Source: Candidatus Omnitrophota bacterium (lineage in GTDB: Bacteria > Omnitrophota > Gorgyraeia > Zapsychrales > Zapsychraceae). Taken from it: a DNA stretch of 64,000 nt. The notes below the pieces were generated by a model. It was not told where the DNA came from, did not search any database, and saw nothing but the letters and a program-made list of their open reading frames with translations. Below are positions 6,414-17,482 of this stretch, piece after piece. Each line of letters starts with the position of its first letter. The stretch's first letter is position 1. Location: assembly GCA_050250375.1 (NCBI GenBank), contig JBFWOS010000001.1:1022361-1086360 (forward strand). The letters are read 5' to 3'. Made by a program: the position numbers and the translations under genes.

Positions 6414-9400
6414 TTATCCCATCATGGCTTGAATTTTTATCTTTGATTCCTGCAGCAAACTGTAAAAACACGGGACCAGAAAAAGTGTGATCAACGTGCC
6501 GAAGACCAGTCCCCAGGCCAGGGCGAGCATCATTTCCGCCAGCATCGCATCGTATCCGGCCATCCCGTACGCCGTCGGCAAGACCCCGGCCACGGTTGTC
6601 ACCGTCGTTAAGACAACGGCCCGCAGACGGGTTTTCGCGATATCGGCGATCTGCCTGATAACCTCACCTTTGGTTTTTGCCGAGAACTCACTGTCCAGTT
6701 TCGCGAGCATGATAATCGAATCGTTGATGACGACCCCGGCCAGCCCCAGCGCCCCGATGGCCGCGTAAAATCCGAACAAAACTTTCCCGTGCAGCCAGAA
6801 CGCCAGGATGACACCGACCATCCCGAAGGGAATCGACAGCATGATGATCACCGGCCTCATCAATGAATTATAAAGAACGGCCAGGATCGCAAAGATCAGC
6901 AGGATGACCATAATAATCGCCATACGAAACCCGCCCTGCGCCTCACGCGTGTCAAAGACTTCCCCGGTAAAAGAAAGTGTCGTGGACGGCTGTGACTTTG
7001 TGACCTGCGGGAACACCTTCGCCTCCAGTTCATCGGCAATCTCCAGGGGCGTGAACTTTTTGACCGCCTTGATATCGGCGTATACGGCCGTTGTGCGTTT
7101 ACCTTCCCGCCGGGAGATCGAATTCGGCGTCTGCGTATTTTCGACATTGACCAGGTCCCTTAACGGAACAAGATAATTCCGCTGGTTCTCAACCGGGATG
7201 TCCAGGATTGATTCCAGGTCCCTCTTCGACTCATCTTTCACGGTTAACCGGACATCCACATCTTCATCGCCTTTGGGAAATTCATAAAGGACCGAACCCT
7301 CCAGGGCCGAACGGAAGGTCGTTGTGATATCGGCCGGATTGATGTCGAGCCGTTTGACTTTTTCCCGTTTAAAATCAATTTTGTGTTCAGCGACCTTGAT
7401 CGGCTCTTCGATCTCGACGTTCATCAGCTTCTCGTTCGCTTTCATGAGTTCAGAGAGTTTTTGGGCGGCCGAATCCCGCAGGGCGTCATCATTTTCCTGG
7501 ATCAGAACTTCTATGGCGCTTCCGCTGTCCTGCCCCCAGCGGCTTTTCTGGATGACGAGTTTGTTGAGGCCTTCAATGGACTCGATCTGCGGTTTCCACA
7601 CGCCGATCAGCTGGTCGGCGGATTTTTTCCGTTTCTCCTTGGGAACAATCTCGACAATCATGCTGAAACGGTTCTCCTGCACCTCGCCTCCCCGCCGGCT
7701 CCGGGCAATCTCCGTACGGTATCCGACCACTTCCTTTCCGATGTAGGGGATTAACAGGTCTTCAATTTTTTTGGTCAGATTGGCGGTATCAATGCGGTCG
7801 GCCTGTTTATCCGCAAAGCCGGAAATAACAATGTCCCGTGTCTCCTCGTTGGGAAACATCACGAATTTCATCTGGCTGGTCATGATCCATCCGGACGCTA
7901 AAAGGATAAAAATGAAAAAGGCAAAGACAAAATATTTGTAAGCCAGAACTTTGTGCAGCAGCGCCCCGTATTGATCTTCAACATTTTCAAACCAATGGCG
8001 TTTGACCGGCTTTTCTTTGTTTTTATGGCCGTTCATCAGCTTGCCGATCTTGGGCACTTCAAAATGCATGTGTCCCGGTAAAACCAGCAGGGATTCAAAG
8101 AGGCTCGCCCCCAACATCAGAAAAATAATAGGCGGGATATATTTATTGATCTGCCCGTACCGTCCCTGGAAATAAAACAGCGGGATAAACGCGATGCAGG
8201 TCGTAATGATGCTGGCCAATATGGGAAGAAAGACCTGGGTTGTTCCCTCGATGGCGGCCTCACGGGAATTCATCCCCTTCGAACGCATCCGGCCCACATT
8301 TTCCGCCACCACAATCGCGTCATCGACAACGATCCCCATCACGATAATCACGGCGGCCAGGGTCGTATTGTTAATCGTATACCCCATGAGCCAGCCGCTG
8401 ATCAGGGTAAAACAGATGGTAAAGGGAATCCCCATCGCGACCCAGAAGCCGGATCTCTTGTTGAGAAACAAAAATAAGGCGAGCAGGATCAGGAAAAAAC
8501 CCACGGCCCCGTTCATGGAAATGATCGACAGCCGGTTGCGGACGTCAATGGATTCATCGTCCAGCAGCACAATATCAATCGGGACATCTTTGAGATGGTT
8601 TTCCTTATATTCTTCAACCAGCCGGGTAACCGAATCCAGCGCCTGGAGAATCCCGGCGGAACTGTTTTTAACAACATTGAACATGACGCATTCGTGGCCG
8701 TTGACCTTGATGATCTCCTTTTCCATGTCAAAACCCGGGACAATCTCAGCGATCTCGGAAAGCGGAATGGCCTGGCCTTCAAACCCGGCCTGGATAAATA
8801 ACCGGTTCAGTTTTTCCGGCGTATCCAGCTGGGCGTTGATCGTTACCTTGGGTTCATTCTTGATTTCGATATGCCCGGCGGGCTGGCGGGCGTGATTGTT
8901 GGTGACTTCCCGTTTAACCTGGCTGAGCGGGATGGCGTAGCGGATCAATTTCTCGGGATCAACCTTGATCTGGATCTCTTCCTGAAAGTAAGCGGACTTA
9001 TCAACGCTGTTTACTTCTTTCAGGTTTACCAGCTGGTTTTCCAGTGAATTGGCATATTTCTGCAGGAGCTGCCTTTCCTGCGTGCTTAGAAGGTGGGACC
9101 CTGTATAGATGAGCGCGATATCGAGGATCGCTTTTTTGGAAGTCTCAAATACCCGGACGGTGGGGTCATCCCGCACGTCTTCCGGAAGGTCAACGTCGGA
9201 AACGGCATTGCGGATCTCGGTGATCGCTTCGTCTTTTCGGGGAAAATCCTGTTCCAGTTCAACGGTGATGGATGTGCTGCCCTGGCTGGCCGAGCTGATC
9301 ACCCGGTAAACCCCGTCTATTCCCTCAACGGCCTCTTCGATTTCTTTTGTGACGAAATGTTCGACTTCTTCGGCTGTGGCCCCTGGATAATTCGCGGAAA

Positions 9401-9545
9401 TGCGCACACGGTCAAAGGTGACATCCGGCAGTTCTTCCTTTTTGATATTCTGCCAGCTGACGACCCCGCCTATGAGGATGGAAAGGAAAATAAGGTTGGT
9501 CAATAAGTGACGGTCAACAAAATAAGTGATTACGGCTCGTAACAT
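6414..9545 (-). CDS. RND efflux transporter permease (AcrB/HAE1 family)
   Basis: 1043 aa with 12-TM architecture and two large periplasmic loops. The conserved TM4 motif GIVVDDAIVVAENV matches AcrB GLLVDDAIVVVENV. Confidence 0.9.
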   Translation of the reverse strand: MLRAVITYFVDRHLLTNLIFLSILIGGVVSWQNIKKEELPDVTFDRVRISANYPGATAEEVEHFVTKEIEEAVEGIDGVYRVISSASQGSTSITVELEQDFPRKDEAITEIRNAVSDVDLPEDVRDDPTVRVFETSKKAILDIALIYTGSHLLSTQERQLLQKYANSLENQLVNLKEVNSVDKSAYFQEEIQIKVDPEKLIRYAIPLSQVKREVTNNHARQPAGHIEIKNEPKVTINAQLDTPEKLNRLFIQAGFEGQAIPLSEIAEIVPGFDMEKEIIKVNGHECVMFNVVKNSSAGILQALDSVTRLVEEYKENHLKDVPIDIVLLDDESIDVRNRLSIISMNGAVGFFLILLALFLFLNKRSGFWVAMGIPFTICFTLISGWLMGYTINNTTLAAVIIVMGIVVDDAIVVAENVGRMRSKGMNSREAAIEGTTQVFLPILASIITTCIAFIPLFYFQGRYGQINKYIPPIIFLMLGASLFESLLVLPGHMHFEVPKIGKLMNGHKNKEKPVKRHWFENVEDQYGALLHKVLAYKYFVFAFFIFILLASGWIMTSQMKFVMFPNEETRDIVISGFADKQADRIDTANLTKKIEDLLIPYIGKEVVGYRTEIARSRRGGEVQENRFSMIVEIVPKEKRKKSADQLIGVWKPQIESIEGLNKLVIQKSRWGQDSGSAIEVLIQENDDALRDSAAQKLSELMKANEKLMNVEIEEPIKVAEHKIDFKREKVKRLDINPADITTTFRSALEGSVLYEFPKGDEDVDVRLTVKDESKRDLESILDIPVENQRNYLVPLRDLVNVENTQTPNSISRREGKRTTAVYADIKAVKKFTPLEIADELEAKVFPQVTKSQPSTTLSFTGEVFDTREAQGGFRMAIIMVILLIFAILAVLYNSLMRPVIIMLSIPFGMVGVILAFWLHGKVLFGFYAAIGALGLAGVVINDSIIMLAKLDSEFSAKTKGEVIRQIADIAKTRLRAVVLTTVTTVAGVLPTAYGMAGYDAMLAEMMLALAWGLVFGTLITLFLVPCFYSLLQESKIKIQAMMG

Positions 9546-9906
9546 AAAGTTATTATAACGGTCATTATTAATAATTTCTTTAAAACTTTAGACAATTTGA
9601 GTTTAAAAAAGTTCCCGGAAAATTTTTTATTTTTAAAATTGACCGGGGAACGTGTTTTCATAGGCCGGCGCGGTGATTTAAACGGAAAAACCCGCCCACT
9701 CCTGTTGAGGAATGAACGGGTTTTTTGATTTCTTCTCCCGATCAGAAGAAATTGGTTGCGGCCCGCCCTGAATTACAAGATTCAGGGCGAGGTCTCGCCC
9801 GTTATTTAATTCCGAACGGGCGGAGGGCCAGATTTGTCCGCCCCCATTATTGATGGGGCGAGATCTCGTCCGGCTGATAGCCGGACGGAAACTAACGGCC
9901 TTCAGG

Positions 9907-10971
9907 TTATGGGGCGGAAGCGGTGTCTTCTCTGGAAACCGAATTGATATAGTCCGCCAAGTCATGCACGCGGACATACCAAAGCTTGCCTTTTTTATGC
10001 GCTTTCAGCTGGCCCCGGTTGATCAAATTGCGCAAATAGTCCTGAGAATAATCATAGACTCGTGCAAGCTCCCGCAGAGGCAATACCGCCTCTTGACTTA
10101 AATTGGTCAACCGTCCCTCTTTGAGGCGATTAACAGTTTCTTTCAGTAGTCCGGAGATCATTTCGACAAACGGCTCAAATTCCTCTTTTTTAATTAATTT
10201 GCTGACATCTGAAACGTTGACCGTCTTGCCTTTCTCAAGGGACTTATGAATATTTTCAAAACAATCGTCCGCCCTTTCAAGACAATCATAATATTGATCG
10301 CGCTCTTTTTTTGAGATCCCCTTGATGGCAACGTTGATCAATCCCTGCCCGATAAGAATATAAGACAGTAAAATACGTCCCACTCTTCCATTTCCATCAC
10401 GAAAGGGGTGGATTGTTTCAAACCATATATGGGTGGTAGCCGCAAGTATCACTTCATCAAAACTACGTTTCTTGAGCGACTCATTGAACCACTTGATAAA
10501 AAGCTGCATGGCCGGGCGGACATAATGGACGTCAACGGGCTCGAAACTCGCTTGAGCGACCTGAATATTGGTCTTGCGGAAATCCCCAATTTCACCGTTG
10601 TACGTTCCCATGGCTTTTTCATAGCGCATCAAAAGCGTGTGGATCTGTTTGATGTCCGCCATACGCAACTCAAACTCGTTCTCTTTAAGCTGGTTATTGG
10701 CGTATTCGTACATCGCGCTGGCCGCTTCAAAATAGCCCAAAATGGCTGCGGCTTTTTGTTTGTCCGTACGCTTGTTATTTTCCAGAACATCCATGAGATC
10801 CTGACGGTTAGCAAAAACACCCTCGATAGCGATAGAGTTACGGATTTCATCCTTAAACAGGGAATACCATTCCGCATTGGTTACGTTAATGAGATTTCCG
10901 AACCTTTCACGCAGTTGCTGGATTTGCTCTTTTAACCCTGCTTCATAATTTTTCCGAACTTTCCGAACCAT
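9907..10971 (-). CDS. Fic/Fido-domain protein (class II, intramolecular inhibitory motif) with C-terminal HTH
   Basis: Canonical Fic active-site motif HPFRDGNGRVGR. An N-terminal inhibitory-helix motif SIAIEG ([S/T]xxxE[G/N]) is present. A C-terminal helix-turn-helix-like segment is also present (LRELARVYDYSQDYLRNLINRGQLKAHKKGKLWYV). Confidence 0.85.
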   Translation of the reverse strand: MVRKVRKNYEAGLKEQIQQLRERFGNLINVTNAEWYSLFKDEIRNSIAIEGVFANRQDLMDVLENNKRTDKQKAAAILGYFEAASAMYEYANNQLKENEFELRMADIKQIHTLLMRYEKAMGTYNGEIGDFRKTNIQVAQASFEPVDVHYVRPAMQLFIKWFNESLKKRSFDEVILAATTHIWFETIHPFRDGNGRVGRILLSYILIGQGLINVAIKGISKKERDQYYDCLERADDCFENIHKSLEKGKTVNVSDVSKLIKKEEFEPFVEMISGLLKETVNRLKEGRLTNLSQEAVLPLRELARVYDYSQDYLRNLINRGQLKAHKKGKLWYVRVHDLADYINSVSREDTASAP

Positions 10972-11089
10972 AAATACCTCATTTTATATATAAAATTGTC
11001 CGAACCTTCACAGTTGGTTCGGAAATAAACATACCATGTTCTTGACTGGAAAGCAACAGATTTTCCGAACCATCCGCTTTGGTTCGGAA
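10952..11089. promoter_or_regulatory. Fic upstream region with two operator-like inverted repeats TCCGAACC-N9-GGTTCGGA plus two direct half-sites over the start codon
   Basis: IR1 lies at 10999..11023 and IR2 at 11063..11089, both with perfect 8-9 bp arms and centres ~65 bp apart. TTCCGAAC half-sites occur at 10952..10959 and 10961..10968, overlapping the Fic ATG. Confidence 0.45.
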
Positions 11090-11170
11090 AATCGTTTTTT
11101 CCTTAGGAAACAGCCATTATAGCTAGACTCGCTACCGCGCGTAATATCAGCACTTCATCAAGGCCTGAGA

Positions 11171-11206
11171 CAAATAAAAACCCATCCCCTAAAAAGGGGA
11201 TGGGTT
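11171..11206 (-). terminator. Rho-independent terminator downstream of tRNA-Met
   Basis: Perfect hairpin AACCCATCCCCT-AAAAA-AGGGGATGGGTT, followed on the minus strand by TTTTTATTTG. Confidence 0.8.
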
Positions 11207-11210
11207 CTTA

Positions 11211-11287
<77 letters not shown>

Positions 11288-11341
11288 ATATTGGGTTCTT
11301 TATTTCTGAATTAAATTTTTAGGTTACGTGGAACCCAATAT

Positions 11342-11385
11342 CGCGAGGCTCGCCTCTCAAATCAAACTTGAAACGGCGGCCCGCG
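11342..11385. repeat. 44-bp direct repeat, copy 1, upstream of tRNA-Met; possible tandem promoter P1
   Basis: CGCGAGGCTCGCCTCTCAAATCAAACTTGAAACGGCGGCCCGCG. On the minus strand it carries TTGATT-N17-GATATT (sigma70-like), ~55 nt upstream of the tRNA 5' end. Confidence 0.5.
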
Positions 11386-11418
11386 GCTTGAGCCCACTTC
11401 TAAAAAGATTCAGATAAA

Positions 11419-11462
11419 CGCGAGGCTCGCCCCTCAAATCAAACTTGAAACGGCGGCCCGCG
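11419..11462. repeat. 44-bp direct repeat, copy 2 (1 mismatch), 77 bp from copy 1
   Basis: CGCGAGGCTCGCCCCTCAAATCAAACTTGAAACGGCGGCCCGCG. Confidence 0.5.
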
Positions 11463-11544
11463 TTCTCACGGACTTCTTACAAAAACATCTATTTGAATAC
11501 AAAGAACAAATATTAACTTTAACCGCTTTCCGCTTAAATCTTCA

Positions 11545-11829
11545 CTACTGCTGCTCGTTAGCCACCACCGGAACCGGCGTGATGCGGTAGATCACTTCAC
11601 CGTCCCGGATGATGCCCATTTTTTCCCGGGCAACCTTCTCTAAATAAACGGGATCATCTTCCAGCTTGCGTTTTTCCTCTGTCAGTTCGGCGTTCTGGCG
11701 TTTCAGTTCGTAAATTTCCCTGAGGTATTCCCGGTTCTTCTCCTGAAGCATCTGCTTTTGGGAAAAGGTCGGCAGAAACAGCAACAAAATACCAATGGCA
11801 ACGGCAAATAACAAAAGAGATTTTTTCAT
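11545..11829 (-). CDS. ftsB: Cell division protein FtsB/DivIC (septum formation initiator)
   Basis: 94 aa with an N-terminal TM, a coiled coil (ELKRQNAELTEEKRKLEDDPVYLEKVAREKMGII), and the conserved eno-ftsB synteny. Confidence 0.78.
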   Translation of the reverse strand: MKKSLLLFAVAIGILLLFLPTFSQKQMLQEKNREYLREIYELKRQNAELTEEKRKLEDDPVYLEKVAREKMGIIRDGEVIYRITPVPVVANEQQ

Positions 11830-11890
11830 AACAGCGTCTGGTGTCCGGCGGAAAATATTTTTCTGTTCACTTCGCGCCTACCGCTAAAAT

Positions 11891-13162
11891 CTAATAAATC
11901 TTTCCCCACTTTGATCCAGCATAGACAGCCTTTTTGCCAAGCTCTTCTTCAATCCGCAGGAGTTCATTATATTTACACAAACGGTCCGTCCTTGACAAAG
12001 AACCGGTCTTGATCTGGCCGACTCCCGTGGCCACTGCGATATGCGCGATGGTTGTGTCTTCGGTTTCACCGGACCGGTGAGAAATGATTGAAGTGTACTT
12101 ATTATCCTTGGCCAGGCTGATCGCGTCAAGTGTTTCTGACAATGACCCGATCTGGTTGACCTTGATCAGGATTGAATTCGCCGCCTTTTCGTCGATGCCT
12201 TTCTTGAGCCGCTTGACGTTGGTAACAAAAAAATCGTCGCCGACCAGCTGGACACTGCCGCCGATCTTTTTGGTCATCGCCTTCCAGCCGTCCCAGTCAT
12301 TTTCGTCGAGGCCGTCTTCAATCGAAATCAGCGGCGATGTCTTGAGCATCTTGGCGTATACATCAATCATCTCGGCAACGGACAGTTTCTTTCCGTTGTA
12401 ACCGTATTTTTTATCTTTATAAAATTCACTGGAGGCCGCGTCAAGCGCGATGCAGATATCTTTTTTCGGTTTATAACCGGCTTTCTCGACCGCTTCAAGG
12501 ATAACCGCGATCCCTTCCTCATTGCTCTTTAGATTTGGAGCGAAACCGCCTTCATCCCCGACAGAGGTGGATAACTTGCGGTCATGCAGAATTTTCTTTA
12601 AGGTGTGAAAGACTTCACAGGCCATACGGATAGCTTCGGAAAACGTCTTCGCGCCGACCGGAGCGATCATGAATTCCTGGACATCCAGATTGTTGTCCGC
12701 GTGCGCACCGCCGTTGATAATATTCATTAACGGGACCGGAAGGATATTGGCTTCTTTTCCGCCTAGAAACTTATAAAGCGGTTTGCCTTCTTCTTTGGCC
12801 GCGGCCTGGGCCACCGCCATGGACACGCCTAAAATCGCGTTGGCGCCCAGTTTGCCCTTATTTTCCGTGCCGTCCAGTTTGATCAGTTTTTTATCAATCT
12901 TTTTAAAATCCGGTTCAAGACCAACCACCATATCCGCGATGGCCTTGTTGACATTGGCGACCGCTTTGGAAACGCCTTTGCCCATATATTTTGTTTTGTC
13001 GCCATCCCGTAATTCAATCGCCTCATGCTCACCGGTCGAAGCGCCGGATGGAACAGCCGCACGGCCCATCACCCCTGATTTGAGGATAACATCAACCTCA
13101 ACCGTCGGGTTCCCGCGGGAATCGATGATCTGCCGGCCTTTGATTTTCACTATTTTTGACAT
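11891..13162 (-). CDS. eno: Enolase (phosphopyruvate hydratase)
   Basis: [25 protein letters not shown]..., with catalytic and metal-binding motifs conserved throughout. Start set at 13162 with SD AGGAAACAGG. The 18-codon N-terminal extension is rejected. Confidence 0.96.
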
Positions 13163-13381: not shown

Positions 13382-16300
13382 TTGATCAATAAAATCATCA
13401 AATTCTTTAAAATCTATTGGATCAACCTTCTTTTATCTATTTGCATCATTAGTGTTGTAATTGGCATTGCCGTGTTTACCTGGTTTTGTATCGAAGGATT
13501 TTCCCATATGGAAGGCTTCAGCAAACGACAGGCCGCCGGGCAGATGGCCTTGCTGCTGCCGATGTTCATTATTGTGCATCTCGTTACTTTGCCGATCATG
13601 CTGGGTGCCCAATTCTTTATGCTTCATGGCGGCGGACTGGCTAAAATCCTGGGCGGTTCAGAATCCAGTAAATCCAAATCAAAAGTTCATTGGGATGAAG
13701 TCATCGGCATGGAAATGGCCAAACAGGATTCCTGGGAGATCGTTGAATTTTTAAGGAATAAAAAGAAACTCGCGGTGATCGGCGGGACAAACATGAAAGG
13801 GGCCTTGATGTTCGGCCCTCCGGGATGCGGAAAGACTTATCTGGCCAAGGCCATCGCGACCGAATCCCATTTACCGTTTCTCTCTACTGTCGGCTCAGAA
13901 TTTGTCACCATGCTCCAGGGGATGGGCGCCATGCGTATGAAATCAATGTTTAAAAAAGCCCGTAAACTGGCCAAGGTCGAGGGCGGCTGTATTATTTTTA
14001 TAGACGAAATTGACTCCTTTGCGCGTCCGCGTTCCGAGATTGAAACCGGCGGCGGAGCCACCACCAGTAATAACGCCACCATTAATCAATTTTTGACTGA
14101 GCTGGACGGCATGAAGAAAAAAGATGATAATATTTTTGTCCTGGCTGCCACCAATGTCGATGAATCGAAACTGGATCCGGCCGTTGTTCGTTCCGGACGG
14201 TTCGACCGGAAAATTCATATCGACAAACCCACCACCAGGGAACGCAAGGCCTTATTAAAATTTTATCTGGCAAAAGTTACTTATGATCAGAAAATTAACG
14301 TCGATGAAATCGCCGAACGTCTTCACGGATTTACACCTGCCGATGTTAACAGCCTGATTAAAGAAGCCGGCGCTATCGCTTTACGCAGCAACGCCAACCT
14401 TATAGAAACAAATCATTTTGAAAATGCTATTTCGCGCATGATGACGTCCAAAGAAAAGTCGCGCAGCAGTTCAACAATACAGCCCAAAGGCAAAGTGCGC
14501 TTCGACGATATAATCGGCATTGAAGAAGCAAAACAGCATGCCAAAGAGCTGGTCAATACGCTTAAAGACCGTCACCTGATGGAAAAAATTGGTGATAAAG
14601 CAACCCGCTGTTCCCTTCTTTTAGGACCATCCGGCTCAGGTAAGTCTTATTTGGCCAAGGCCATCGCGACAGAGGCCGATGTTCCGTTTTTAACTGTCAT
14701 GGGCAGTGAATTTATTGACCAGTTTATGAACCAGGGCCCGATAAAGATGCGTGAATTTTTCTCCGAGGCCCGTATGCTCGCTAAAGCTGAAGATGCCTGC
14801 CTGGTTTTTATTGATGAAATTGATGCCTTCGCCCGGAATCGGGAAAAAATGTTCGGTTATATGCAGAACCCTACGCTCGACCAATTTATCAGGGAATTGG
14901 ATGATCTGCGCCACAACAACATTAATATCATCGTTCTGGCGGCGACCAACCTAGCAGAAGAAGACTTAGACCAGGCGATATTAAAAATCGGCCGTTTTGA
15001 TCATAAAATTATCCTTGAATTACCGCGGGCCAAACAAAGAGAAGAAATTCTGCAGTACTTTTTGAAAAAAGAAAAGAAGACCGACGATATCGATTTAAAA
15101 TTATTGGCCAATAAAACACCCTCCTTTTCTCCGGCGGACTTAGAAAGCATGGTCAAAACCGCCAGTTTAAGTGCCTTACGGAATAAACGGGAAATGATCC
15201 ACATGTCGGACTTAAATTCGGCTTTAGTCGAGATTCAGGAAGATGTCAATAAACGCGGCGACATCAGCATGGCCAATACCAAGGTCAACATCCCCTGGAA
15301 TGAGGTCATCGGGATGGATGAAACCAAAAAGAACGCCTGGGAAATCGTTGAACTCTTAAAAGACCGCCGCAAACTTAAAGTGGTCGGCGGTAAGATTATC
15401 AAAGGGCTTCTGATGATTGGCCCTCCGGGTTGCGGTAAAACTTATCTGGCCAAGGCCATCGCGACAGAAGCTGGTTATCCATTTCTCAGCGTCGTCGGCA
15501 GTGAATTTGTGGACAAGTACGTCGGTGAAGGCGCCCGTAAGATCCGCGACCTCTTTGCTGCGGCACGCAGTCTGGCCAAAGCGGAAGGCGGATGCATTGT
15601 CTTTATTGATGAAATCGACGCCTTTATCAAACCGCGCACCAATGAGATGAACGGGAATACGAATTCGGAAAATGCCACGATTAACCAGTTTCTTGCCGAA
15701 CTCGACGGACTTGGACGGGCCGAAGACGGAAACGTCATCATCCTGGCCGCGACGAATATGCCTCCGGAAAGCCTGGACCCGGCGGTCATGCGTTCGGGAC
15801 GATTTGACAGAAAACTGGAAATTGTCAAACCGTCAGCCAAGGACCGTGAAGAACTCCTTAATTTTTATTTAACTAAAGTCGAAACAGACGGCGCGATCGA
15901 TGTAAAACTTTTATCTGAAAAGACAAAATGGTTTTCCGCCGCCGATATTAATAACATGGTCCGCGAGGCCGGAATCTTTGCCTTGCGTGAAAATAGAGAA
16001 AAGTTGTCCATGGATGACCTTAATAAAGGGATGAAACGGGTCATGGATTCGATCGAGAATATGGGAGAAGACAAAATCCTCGGAGACAAGGTAAATGTCA
16101 AATGGGAAGAAGTCATCGGTATGCCTGACGCCAAAGAAGAAGCGTTGGAAATCGTTAAAATGCTGAAAGACCGCAATATTGTTAAAGCCATCGGCGGCAA
16201 GATCGTCAAAGGGGTTGTTCTCTTCGGACCTCCGGGATGCGGAAAAACATATCTCGCCAAAGCCATGGCCACCGAGGCGGGCTTCCCTTTTATCTCTAAA

Positions 16301-17482
16301 GTCGGCAGCGAATTTGTCACGATGTGGGTCGGCGAAGGCGGAAAAAAGATGCGGGATATGTTCAAAGAAGCCCGCGCCTTGGCAAAAACTGAAGGCGGGT
16401 GTATCATCTTCATCGATGAAATAGATGCCTTTGCCAGACCCCGCGGATCCAACCAAAACAGCAGCAGCAACTCGGAAAACGCCACGATCAACCAATTCCT
16501 CACAGAAATGGATGGATTGAAAAACGAAAGCAACAATATCATGATCCTGGCGGCAACCAACGCGCGTGAGAACCAAATCGACCCTGCGGTTATGCGCGCA
16601 GGCCGCATTGAACGCAAAATTTACATCTCCCTGCCGACCCTGGAAGAACGTAAAGAACTGTTCAAGTTCTATTTCAGCCGGGTCAGCATCGCGGACGATG
16701 TAAGCCCGGACCGCTGGGCCCGTATCGCGGTGGGCACTTCTCCGTCGGACATCGACAGCATCGTGCGTGAAGGCGGTCTATTAGCGTTACGCGGCAAACG
16801 AGAATCAATTACCCACAAAGACTTAATGGAAGGTTATGATCGAATCACATTAGGCTCAGTGTCCCGGGAGAAATACAACAAGAAATCAATTATGAAAACA
16901 GCTTATCACGAATCCGGTCATGCAATTCTAACTTACCTTGTTCATCCTTCGAGTGAGGTGATCAAGGCTACGATTAAACCCCGCAAGGGTTCACTGGGCA
17001 TGATTCAAAACCGTCCGATTGAAGAACTCGCGCTGAATTCACCGAACAAAGAACAGTGGCTTTCCGAAATACAAATAATGCTGGCCGGGTACGTCGCCGA
17101 GAAACTCACCTTCGGCACAACCGCCTCCGGAGTTGGCGGCGGGCCGGGCAGTGATTTTCATCGGGCCATGAGCGTGGCCAATTATATGGTCCGCAGCCTT
17201 GGTATGGGGGCTTCCGGGCTGATCGGTGACTTTACCGCCATGGAAGAAGATGCTCTATCGGAAAGGACCAAAGTAATTCTCGAAAACGATGTCCAGGACA
17301 TCCTCCAGAGCTGTTTGAAAAAAACCACCGAAATCCTGACCGAATATAAGGCCGTCCTCGAATATTTTGCGCAGGAATTAATGGAAAAGGGCGATCTGGA
17401 ATATGATGACGTCCAGGACATCTTTAATAAATTTAAACTAAAGCCGGCCGCCGTCCGCCCTTCGACCATTGAGGAAGTTTAA
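13382..17482 (+). CDS. FtsH-like membrane AAA+ metalloprotease with four tandem AAA+ modules and one M41 peptidase domain
   Basis: TTG start with SD GAGGAG 7 nt upstream. Two TM helices at aa ~14-38 and ~55-80 with no periplasmic domain between them. Four FtsH-type units, each with an xxW/F[DE][DE]V/IIGM motif, Walker A, Walker B and SRH:
- aa ~102-370: Walker A GPPGCGKT.
- aa ~372-635: Walker A GPSGSGKS.
- aa ~637-905: Walker A GPPGCGKT.
- aa ~906-1160: Walker A GPPGCGKT.
Walker B is FIDEID in all four. The C-terminal M41 domain has HESGH zinc-binding, a downstream AGYVAEK, and a GSDFHRAMSVANYMV motif aligning to FtsH. Confidence 0.9.
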   Translation: MINKIIKFFKIYWINLLLSICIISVVIGIAVFTWFCIEGFSHMEGFSKRQAAGQMALLLPMFIIVHLVTLPIMLGAQFFMLHGGGLAKILGGSESSKSKSKVHWDEVIGMEMAKQDSWEIVEFLRNKKKLAVIGGTNMKGALMFGPPGCGKTYLAKAIATESHLPFLSTVGSEFVTMLQGMGAMRMKSMFKKARKLAKVEGGCIIFIDEIDSFARPRSEIETGGGATTSNNATINQFLTELDGMKKKDDNIFVLAATNVDESKLDPAVVRSGRFDRKIHIDKPTTRERKALLKFYLAKVTYDQKINVDEIAERLHGFTPADVNSLIKEAGAIALRSNANLIETNHFENAISRMMTSKEKSRSSSTIQPKGKVRFDDIIGIEEAKQHAKELVNTLKDRHLMEKIGDKATRCSLLLGPSGSGKSYLAKAIATEADVPFLTVMGSEFIDQFMNQGPIKMREFFSEARMLAKAEDACLVFIDEIDAFARNREKMFGYMQNPTLDQFIRELDDLRHNNINIIVLAATNLAEEDLDQAILKIGRFDHKIILELPRAKQREEILQYFLKKEKKTDDIDLKLLANKTPSFSPADLESMVKTASLSALRNKREMIHMSDLNSALVEIQEDVNKRGDISMANTKVNIPWNEVIGMDETKKNAWEIVELLKDRRKLKVVGGKIIKGLLMIGPPGCGKTYLAKAIATEAGYPFLSVVGSEFVDKYVGEGARKIRDLFAAARSLAKAEGGCIVFIDEIDAFIKPRTNEMNGNTNSENATINQFLAELDGLGRAEDGNVIILAATNMPPESLDPAVMRSGRFDRKLEIVKPSAKDREELLNFYLTKVETDGAIDVKLLSEKTKWFSAADINNMVREAGIFALRENREKLSMDDLNKGMKRVMDSIENMGEDKILGDKVNVKWEEVIGMPDAKEEALEIVKMLKDRNIVKAIGGKIVKGVVLFGPPGCGKTYLAKAMATEAGFPFISKVGSEFVTMWVGEGGKKMRDMFKEARALAKTEGGCIIFIDEIDAFARPRGSNQNSSSNSENATINQFLTEMDGLKNESNNIMILAATNARENQIDPAVMRAGRIERKIYISLPTLEERKELFKFYFSRVSIADDVSPDRWARIAVGTSPSDIDSIVREGGLLALRGKRESITHKDLMEGYDRITLGSVSREKYNKKSIMKTAYHESGHAILTYLVHPSSEVIKATIKPRKGSLGMIQNRPIEELALNSPNKEQWLSEIQIMLAGYVAEKLTFGTTASGVGGGPGSDFHRAMSVANYMVRSLGMGASGLIGDFTAMEEDALSERTKVILENDVQDILQSCLKKTTEILTEYKAVLEYFAQELMEKGDLEYDDVQDIFNKFKLKPAAVRPSTIEEV

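Follow-up and report, generated by a model that had tools for sequence, protein, structure and literature searches.

The stretch of DNA examined here, 64,000 nucleotides (nt) of contig JBFWOS010000001.1 from a Candidatus Omnitrophota bacterium (assembly GCA_050250375.1) and hereafter called the window, carries on its reverse strand a gene for a protein that joins a Fic domain to a helix-turn-helix (HTH) of the HTH_17 family at its C-terminus. This gene, Fic-HTH_17, lies directly downstream of an intact tRNA-Met gene, and four groups of a repeated half-site, O1 to O4, are arranged around its promoter and within its first codons (Table 1). An earlier note on this DNA, made from the letters alone, described the protein as a class II Fic enzyme fused to an HTH, pointed to palindromic sites upstream of it and supposed that the protein regulates its own gene. 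Comparison with orthologous loci extends this picture and makes a one-gene Fic module, repressed by its own HTH, the probable reading of the locus.

Table 1. Features in the window, with the lengths of target duplications at other loci (L numbers)
Feature	Position or locus	Strand	Basis and remarks
Fic-HTH_17 coding sequence	9907..10971	-	354 aa; open reading frame call, Pfam, homolog search, structure model
Inhibitory motif SIAIEG codons, residues 46-51	10819..10836	-	read from sequence; aligned to FICD TVAIEG
Fic active-site motif HPFRDGNGRVGR codons, residues 188-199	10375..10410	-	read from sequence; Pfam; family conservation
HTH_17 winged helix-turn-helix, residues 300-344	9940..10074	-	Pfam; family alignment; model
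O1, perfect inverted repeat GATTTTCCGAACCA-N7-TGGTTCGGAAAATC, 14-bp arms	11059..11093	.	just upstream of -35; 5' edge of the block conserved between loci
-35-like hexamer TTGCTT (orthologs TTGCyT)	11051..11056	-	read from sequence; conserved column block
Extended -10 TGGTATGTT (orthologs TGnTATATT), 17 nt past -35	11028..11036	-	sequence and promoter alignment
O2, inverted repeat ATTTCCGAACCA-N7-AGGTTCGGA	10999..11026	.	begins 2 nt past -10; spans predicted transcription start
Ribosome-binding site GAGG in conserved leader TTTATATATAAAATGAGG	10977..10980	-	sequence and promoter alignment
O3, direct half-sites ATGGTTCGGAAA and GTTCGGAAA, 9 bp apart	10951..10971	-	overlap start codon and codons 2-7
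O4, lone half-site AGGTTCGGAAAT in codons 23-26	10895..10906	-	octamer scan and codon conservation
tRNA-Met (CAT), intact, directly upstream	11211..11287	-	ARAGORN; Rfam tRNA 59.4 bits
Terminator-like hairpin after tRNA, 12-bp stem and T run	11179..11206	-	inverted-repeat and terminator scans
Degenerate second tRNA-Met 3' half, from anticodon loop onward	9825..9918	-	starts on Fic stop codon; ~51-nt interruption
Target duplication	L002		66 bp
Target duplication	L005		32 bp
Target duplication	L009		77 bp
Target duplication	L011		128 bp
Target duplication	L017		64 bp
Target duplication	L020		62 bp
Target duplication	L056		70 bp

The Fic part is recognized by Pfam over residues 103-206 (E 4e-18, 66 bits), and the two motifs on which the earlier note had based its class assignment, an AMPylation-competent active site and an N-terminal SIAIEG, can both be read directly. 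The active-site motif HPFRDGNGRVGR satisfies the consensus HxFx(D/E)GN(G/K)RxxR, and its residues H188, P189, G193, R196, G198 and R199 are invariant among 50 homologs. Similarly, SIAIEG satisfies the inhibitory consensus (S/T)xxxE(G/N) and lies in the same chain, N-terminal to the Fic core; S46, A48 and G51 are invariant in the family and E50 is at least 90% conserved. The closest solved structures by sequence are those of FICD/HYPE, a eukaryotic class II Fic, with an alignment over residues 41-236 that runs from the inhibitory helix (TVAIEG in FICD) through the Fic core, and the core is nearer to FICD than to SoFic (1e-13 versus 7e-07). FICD differs in its TPR repeats and membrane anchor, in having no DNA-binding domain and in regulating BiP. 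An AlphaFold (AF2) model with 50 homologs as input (pLDDT 82, pTM 0.81) shows an all-helical Fic fold, for which Foldseek returns BtFic (3cuc), FICD, CbFic2 (8cil) and SoFic at E-values of 1e-9 to 1e-5, with a TM-score to FICD of ~0.5. The motifs, the FICD alignment and the modeled fold place the protein among the class II Fic enzymes, predicted to be inhibited in cis.

The C-terminus, which the earlier note had likened to an HTH, is matched by the Pfam family HTH_17 (PF12728) over residues 300-344 with 37.9 bits against a curated cut-off of 27, so that a DNA-binding fold is indeed recognized there. In the model this part forms a beta-alpha-alpha-beta-beta-alpha arrangement (strand 296-298, helices 299-305 and 310-318, strands 324-327 and 330-334). 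The Foldseek neighbors of the isolated domain are all DNA-binding winged helices, those of highest probability being the RdfS excisionase, BldC on DNA and P2 Cox (weak E-values of 0.13-0.16), and a search of the C-terminal 67 residues by sequence against the PDB gave no significant match. By the Pfam match and the model, the C-terminus is a DNA-binding winged helix of the excisionase/MerR type. Within it, the putative recognition helix, YSQDYLRNLINR (residues 308-319), shows no change among the sequences sampled.

Upstream of the gene lie the two perfect inverted repeats of the earlier note: TCCGAACC-N9-GGTTCGGA occurs without mismatch at 10999-11023 and 11064-11088, and no other match is found in the window even when 3 mismatches are allowed. 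The upstream repeat extends further than had been claimed, to the 14-bp arms of O1. The two direct half-sites over the start codon (ATGGTTCGGAAAGTTCGGAAA) are likewise present, and the window has nine GTTCGGAA octamers, seven of them within 9810-11089. O1 and O2 keep a constant distance of 65 bp, about six helical turns. To these features we add a further half-site within the gene (O4), a constraint on synonymous positions, a partial duplication of the tRNA-Met and a cassette-like scattering of the gene.

The protein itself is annotated in a metagenome-assembled genome of Candidatus Omnitrophota, in a contig of 1.2 Mb. Two protein searches yielded ~435 and 531 cluster representatives; none of the listed matches falls below 57% identity, and almost every one combines Fic with HTH_17. 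We fetched 21 full-length loci from genomes and ~40 from metagenomes, ~45 of which were usable after removal of duplicates, and aligned 44 non-redundant promoters. In this alignment the upstream flanks are unrelated between loci up to a sharp boundary, and similarity starts exactly at O1, which takes the form ATTTCCGAACCA-N7-TGGTTCGGAAAAT in the orthologs. It is followed after 3-4 nt by the -35, TTGCyT, after another 17 nt by the extended -10, TGnTATATT, and 3 nt past the -10 by O2 as TTTCCGAACCA-N7-TGGTTCGG; beyond O2 a conserved A/T-rich leader ends in GAGG and is followed by ATGGTTCGGAAAGTTCG (O3). Conservation covers the arms, the -35, the extended -10 and the leader but not the 7-nt spacers and the upstream flanks, and it is this conservation across orthologs on which we base the assignment of the promoter. 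Relative to the gene, CGAAC stands at -115 and -50 and GTTCG at -99, -34, +3 and +12, positions that are fixed within one or two bases in almost all of the ~45 non-redundant loci despite their unrelated flanks. Repeated sites at fixed positions in so many loci are more than chance.

A small subclade (L018, L059 and L073) has lost O1 and kept O2 and O3, and distant clades (59-63% identity) retain an inverted repeat right after the -10 together with a second element beside the start codon. Down to 57-60% protein identity, neither the putative recognition helix nor the core of the half-site varies. We further note extra partial copies of the operator/promoter block beside complete cassettes (L060:1000-1220, L035:3663 and L076:529), which suggest nested or tandem insertions, or decayed copies. 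Two metagenome-assembled genomes (MAGs), JABDGZ01 (L010 and L014) and CAZASA01 (L013 and L016), carry two Fic-HTH_17 paralogs each; these are 72-75% identical to the window protein and have the same operator sequence, and cross-regulation between the paralogs of one genome is therefore possible.

The palindrome is also essentially specific to these promoters. Over 492 kb, made up of the window and all loci, matches to CGAACy-N9-rGTTCG are confined almost wholly to the two promoter positions in front of Fic-HTH genes; the few extra matches lie beside cassettes (L035 and L076) or in L075, where the gene match is irregular. A collection of viral contigs scanned for the palindrome gave 0 matches. 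Within the 492 kb the palindrome is thus a promoter-specific element and not the generic repeat that the earlier note had allowed for.

O3 and O4 fall within the coding sequence, and we examined their conservation at synonymous sites by aligning the codons of 40 orthologs. In O3, codons 2-5 are GTT, CGG, AAA and GTT in 100%, 95%, 97% and 93% of the sequences, compared with a mean share of the commonest codon at conserved positions elsewhere of 52% for Val, 52% for Arg and 74% for Lys, and a maximum of 65% for any other Arg. Similarly, codons 23-24, in O4, are Arg AGG (92%) and Phe TTC (97%), which together spell AGGTTCGG; these shares are the highest for Arg and Phe in the gene, and the TTC stands out because the other listed highly conserved Phe codons are TTT. 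Outside O3 and O4 no such conservation was found. The direct repeat of L019 and L060, GGTTCGGAA(A/G)GTTCG, is placed in the 5' untranslated region, out of frame with the main open reading frame (ORF). Because the codons are frozen, the repeat lies outside the ORF in these two loci and the first eight residues of the protein are disordered in the model, we attribute the N-terminal MVRKVR to the DNA or RNA motif and not to protein function. O3 and O4 are nucleic-acid elements that are conserved independently of coding.

In distant clades (L019, L060, L071 and L061), a short ORF, MVRKVR..., begins with ATGGTTCGGAA.. ahead of the main start codon and either stops at the main ATG or runs across it. 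We treat this ORF as probably incidental, because its ATG is probably part of an extended half-site (CCAT/ATGG) and it has no preceding ribosome-binding site.

No neighboring gene is conserved across the loci, whose contexts include a glycosyltransferase cluster, the interval between cytochrome c biogenesis genes and multiheme cytochromes, a position beside DUF1016 and, in the window, the position after tRNA-Met. The only trans-acting factor that accompanies the sites is therefore Fic-HTH itself. Together with the placement of the sites around the -35 and -10 and the start of similarity at the first site, this observation strongly suggests, from sequence comparison, the autoregulation that the earlier note had proposed.

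In such a self-repressing module, the enzyme would be a FICD/SoFic-like class II AMP-transferase, possibly also a de-AMPylase, with its active site obstructed by its own N-terminal SxxxEG helix, and would be joined through a long helix to the HTH_17 winged helix. The HTH would recognize the half-site GGTTCGGAAA. With O1 abutting the -35 and O2 covering the predicted transcription start, the inverted-repeat operators would bracket the promoter, and the protein would occupy O1 and O2 and probably also O3 and O4 inside the transcribed region. Bound protein, probably a dimer or higher oligomer, would occlude RNA polymerase and may block elongation, and a potentially toxic, self-inhibited AMP-transferase would in this way be held at a low, self-limiting level, whatever its presumed cellular target. 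Excisionase-type winged helices such as BldC and Xis assemble head-to-tail on direct repeats. Since inverted (18 bp) and direct (9 bp) arrangements are mixed at this promoter, each winged helix may read one half-site while tethered to an oligomeric Fic core.

Several observations weigh against this interpretation. A strict sigma-70 scan made no promoter call. The spacing of the half-sites, 18 bp from center to center when inverted and 9 bp when direct, is odd for a simple HTH dimer, and the Foldseek E-values of the isolated C-terminal domain are weak (0.04-0.3). HTH residues and half-sites show no clean covariation, both being nearly invariant, and a walk outward from a 60%-identical member stayed within a tight clade, with all 120 best matches at least 57% identical and of the same architecture. 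RG[N]321 goes loosely with the half-site variant GGTTCGCAAA (5/6 versus 7/44), an association that is not clean, comes from phylogenetically dependent loci and was not used. What ties the protein to its sites is co-conservation of HTH and half-site, not covariation.

The position of O3 and O4 within the mRNA raises the alternative that the repeats act mainly at the RNA level, with O2 as a 5'-terminal hairpin whose left arm (UUUCCGAACCA) could pair alternatively with the start-codon region (AUGGUUCGGAAA) or with O4, forming a translational switch or stability element. We regard both this role and the proposed pairing as rather improbable. The 11-bp complementarity between the O2 left arm and O3 is kept in 98% of the cells across 42 orthologs, and the O2 hairpin in 87%, but any array of repeated operator half-sites shows such complementarity automatically. 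The minimum-free-energy fold of the window leader does pair the 5' end with O4, yet its stability does not exceed that of shuffled sequence (z = -0.94). No compensatory change is seen, the pairs being invariant or broken one-sidedly, and no measure rises above shuffles. Moreover, O1 lies upstream of the -35 and outside the predicted transcript, yet is as well conserved as O2. An Rfam search of 9400-11900 passed only the tRNA.

To a similarly small degree we credit a second alternative, in which DNA binding mainly controls the enzyme by driving dimerization and a switch between AMPylation and de-AMPylation, so that the sites in the promoter would serve as a docking platform or sensor and transcriptional feedback would be a side effect. 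The model for this is CbFic2 of Coxiella burnetii, whose class II Fic chain ends in a winged HTH and which is a structural neighbor of the protein described here (8cil); CbFic2 is activated by DNA, binding through its HTH stimulating both activity and dimerization (PMC10628234). CbFic2 differs in that its HTH is DeoR-like and without known sequence specificity, and in that it is a secreted effector targeting histone H3 (PMC10628234), whereas the motif here is precise and holds a constant position with respect to the -35, the -10 and the predicted transcription start, as needed by a repressor and not by an allosteric platform. AMPylation by SoFic also needs dimerization (bioRxiv 10.64898/2026.07.09.737422), and four sites within ~200 bp would load several protomers close together, but a single locus per genome would be a poor activator of a cytoplasmic pool of enzyme.

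It is very unlikely that the repeats are primarily cis sites for the movement or maintenance of a cassette, att-like and bound by an excisionase-type HTH, with promoter control secondary. HTH_17 is an excisionase/MerR-type fold, and its structural neighbors RdfS, BldC and P2 Cox assemble on repeated sites; O1 is moreover the 5' edge of the conserved unit, and cassettes are enriched for flanking target duplications, as set out below. However, no matching site lies at the 3' edge, the distance from duplication to cassette edge varies from 0 to 150 nt, no recombinase was found nearby in three loci outside the window, and transcription control fully accounts for where the sites stand relative to the -35, the -10, the predicted transcription start and the ATG. 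A host transcription factor, LexA-like or a global regulator, that binds the palindromes and draws the gene into a host regulon is equally unlikely. The half-site CGAAC/GTTCG recalls Gram-positive LexA boxes, but the spacing GAAC-N11-GTTC differs from that of known LexA boxes, and the sites accompany the gene in unrelated contexts and across different MAG lineages and are found neither upstream of other genes in the 492 kb nor elsewhere in the window.

A self-repressing Fic enzyme of the kind favored here has been described in Yersinia pseudotuberculosis. There, CccR combines a class II Fic (S59ARIEG) with a C-terminal HTH and represses its own promoter through AGATAATCAT-N26-ATGATAATCT near the -35/-10, as determined by footprinting, electrophoretic mobility shift assays, isothermal titration calorimetry and lacZ fusions (PMC9755527). 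The two proteins share a single polypeptide with an N-terminal inhibitory helix (SARIEG versus SIAIEG), a Fic core and a C-terminal DNA-binding domain, as well as inverted repeats at their own -35/-10. They differ in the DNA-binding domain, which is a SoFic-type winged helix in CccR and HTH_17 here, and in the operator, which is single in CccR (10-bp arms, 26-bp spacer), whereas four elements are present here (11-bp arms, 7-bp spacer, direct half-sites in the ORF). In addition, CccR is a type VI secretion system effector encoded in an effector cluster, whereas the Fic-HTH_17 gene stands alone, and sequence similarity between the two is confined to the Fic core.

Similarly, SoFic of Shewanella oneidensis binds 100 bp upstream of its own start codon and AMPylates EF-Tu, both activities needing dimerization (bioRxiv 10.64898/2026.07.09.737422), and a Sofic protein is an abortive-infection defense gene (PMC12249575). 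The protein described here is likewise a class II Fic, and the PADLOC SoFic profile, which stands for a single-gene anti-phage system, matches its residues 18-236 (E 7e-38). This profile covers the Fic part only, however, the C-terminal domain comes from another Pfam family, and the NCBIfam SoFic equivalog reaches 50.5 bits against a cut-off of 550, over residues 157-233 only. Because the equivalog score is far below its cut-off, the profile match is limited to the Fic part and the DNA-binding family is different, we do not count the protein among the SoFic/CccR family. Fic-HTH_17 is an independent fusion that probably reaches the same logic with a more elaborate operator array. The principle is not new, since it has been demonstrated for CccR and suggested for SoFic; new are the family, the HTH class, the four-element operator with half-sites embedded in the coding sequence and the cassette-like distribution. 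Class I toxin-antitoxin pairs such as VbhT/VbhA and FicT/FicA differ in having a separate antitoxin gene, whereas the inhibitory motif here is in cis; as to a separate small antitoxin gene, no neighboring ORF is conserved across the loci examined. In the literature that could be searched, no paper on a Fic joined to HTH_17 or on Fic proteins in Omnitrophota was found.

The Fic-HTH_17 family comprises ~500 protein clusters at 90% identity and is almost entirely confined to Omnitrophota, a group that has been little studied. Its size, its confinement to this group and a conservation about equal to that of enolase (75% versus 74% between two genomes) point to an important cellular or anti-phage role. 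If the self-repressing reading holds, the locus would represent an unusually clean natural example of an enzyme and its repressor in a single polypeptide, with a defined and deeply conserved operator array, and the fusion of Fic to its own repressor would have arisen at least twice, with unrelated HTH classes.

We next consider how the gene is distributed. At the window the traits of a tRNA island are found, namely tRNA 3' repeats at both ends and variable occupancy among relatives. The degenerate tRNA-Met copy consists of CATAACCTGAAGGCCGTTAGTT, ~51 nt and CAAATCTGGCCC (9918-9825) and corresponds to 11260-11220 of the intact tRNA (9890-9918 versus 11232-11260, 83% identical; 9825-9836 versus 11220-11231, 100%), which gives a repeat of 22 + 12 bp in the tRNA with only the Fic-HTH ORF in between. 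Three relatives (L106-L108, with enolases 94%, 92% and 87% identical) share the enolase, DivIC and tRNA-Met genes, and similarity stops exactly at the tRNA 3' end, beyond which each has different genes and no Fic. In L039, with enolase 74% and Fic 75% identical, the arrangement from tRNA-Met to Fic is homologous throughout, and the insertion at this locus is thus old and under purifying selection. As a side observation, the tRNA-Met that follows enolase and DivIC (11209-11287) is an integration hot spot with variable content, the cargo in L106-L108 being MarR and a desaturase, an HTH_17-DEAD helicase and an XRE regulator, or 23S_rRNA_IVP; in L106 the tRNA 3' end is moreover present once more, 145 nt downstream.

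Direct target duplications, imperfect (83-95%), flank the cassette in ~8-10 of ~50 loci (Table 1), and at three of these loci, L005, L009 and L011, a stop codon closes the duplicated sequence, which fits a copy of the 3' end of the gene upstream. Such flanking repeats are ~17 times commoner than around control intervals of the same size in the same loci (8/45 versus 3/288, Fisher p = 7e-6). Pieces of tRNA-Met, tRNA-Thr and tRNA-Ser recur beside cassettes, no integrase or transposase Pfam match was found within +/-8 kb in three other loci, and the cassette, at a GC content of 0.44, lies slightly below its flanks (0.48-0.53). This pattern resembles both a mode of insertion with long target duplication that restriction-modification genes have been found to use (Furuta et al., 2010; PMC2853133) and integrase-less islets at tRNA hot spots. 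Shared with these are a short self-contained insert, flanking direct duplications of >30 bp of the target, which is often a gene 3' end or the part of a tRNA between anticodon loop and 3' end, and the lack of a mobility gene. Furuta-type insertions differ in their cargo, which is restriction-modification and not Fic-HTH, and the duplications here are imperfect and found in a minority of loci; the comparison with Fic-less relatives covers the tRNA-Met locus of the window, where each relative has other DNA, so that none of them shows a truly empty site. Scattering without a recombinase, together with long target duplications, recalls an old and unexplained mode of gene mobility that has so far been seen mostly with restriction-modification genes.

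It is conceivable, though unlikely, that the ~1.2-kb unit of O1, promoter, O2 and the Fic-HTH_17 gene is a minimal selfish mobile gene that spreads in Omnitrophota by inserting at the 3' ends of tRNA and protein genes without a known recombinase, with long target duplications of variable length left behind. The excisionase-type HTH and the repeat array could then take part in movement, or recombinases could be supplied in trans, and a self-repressed toxic enzyme would make the unit hard to lose. We further note a tandem motif, GTGCTAGCACTGTGCTAGCA, at cassette edges (L001:859, L035:2064, L096:1149 and L023 at ~135-160). In L023 and L096 it comes directly after the Fic stop, in L001 and L035 it lies upstream, and in L023 and L035 ~120 nt and then the 3' half of a tRNA-Met follow it. 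The motif may represent one arm of an att-like site. A circular element, considered in view of many contigs of 1.2-1.4 kb, was rejected: L096 and L098 have no terminal overlap, and the 22-nt overlap of L097 is more like a flanking repeat and shorter than expected of a circular assembly artifact. The short contigs are better explained by assemblies that break at the edges of a conserved gene present in multiple contexts.

We note some other features of the window. Between DivIC and tRNA-Met lies a 44-nt direct repeat (11342-11385 and 11419-11462, 98% identical, 77-nt period), both copies of which are conserved in L107 (94-96%), and an 18-nt inverted repeat (11281-11298 with 11331-11348) overlaps the 5' end of the tRNA. 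Small palindromes of the form GCGAG-N(1-5)-CTCGC (9785-9801, 9856-9872, 11343 and 11420) are restricted, within the window, to the surroundings of the tRNA-Met/Fic locus; two of them lie inside ~51-nt stretches that interrupt the degenerate tRNA 3' half, and they may be miniature inserted elements. Further along, at 13382-17482 on the forward strand, a 1366-residue protein combines four AAA modules with a following FtsH-type M41 peptidase domain, an unusual multi-AAA FtsH-like architecture that is conserved beside enolase in L107 and L108.

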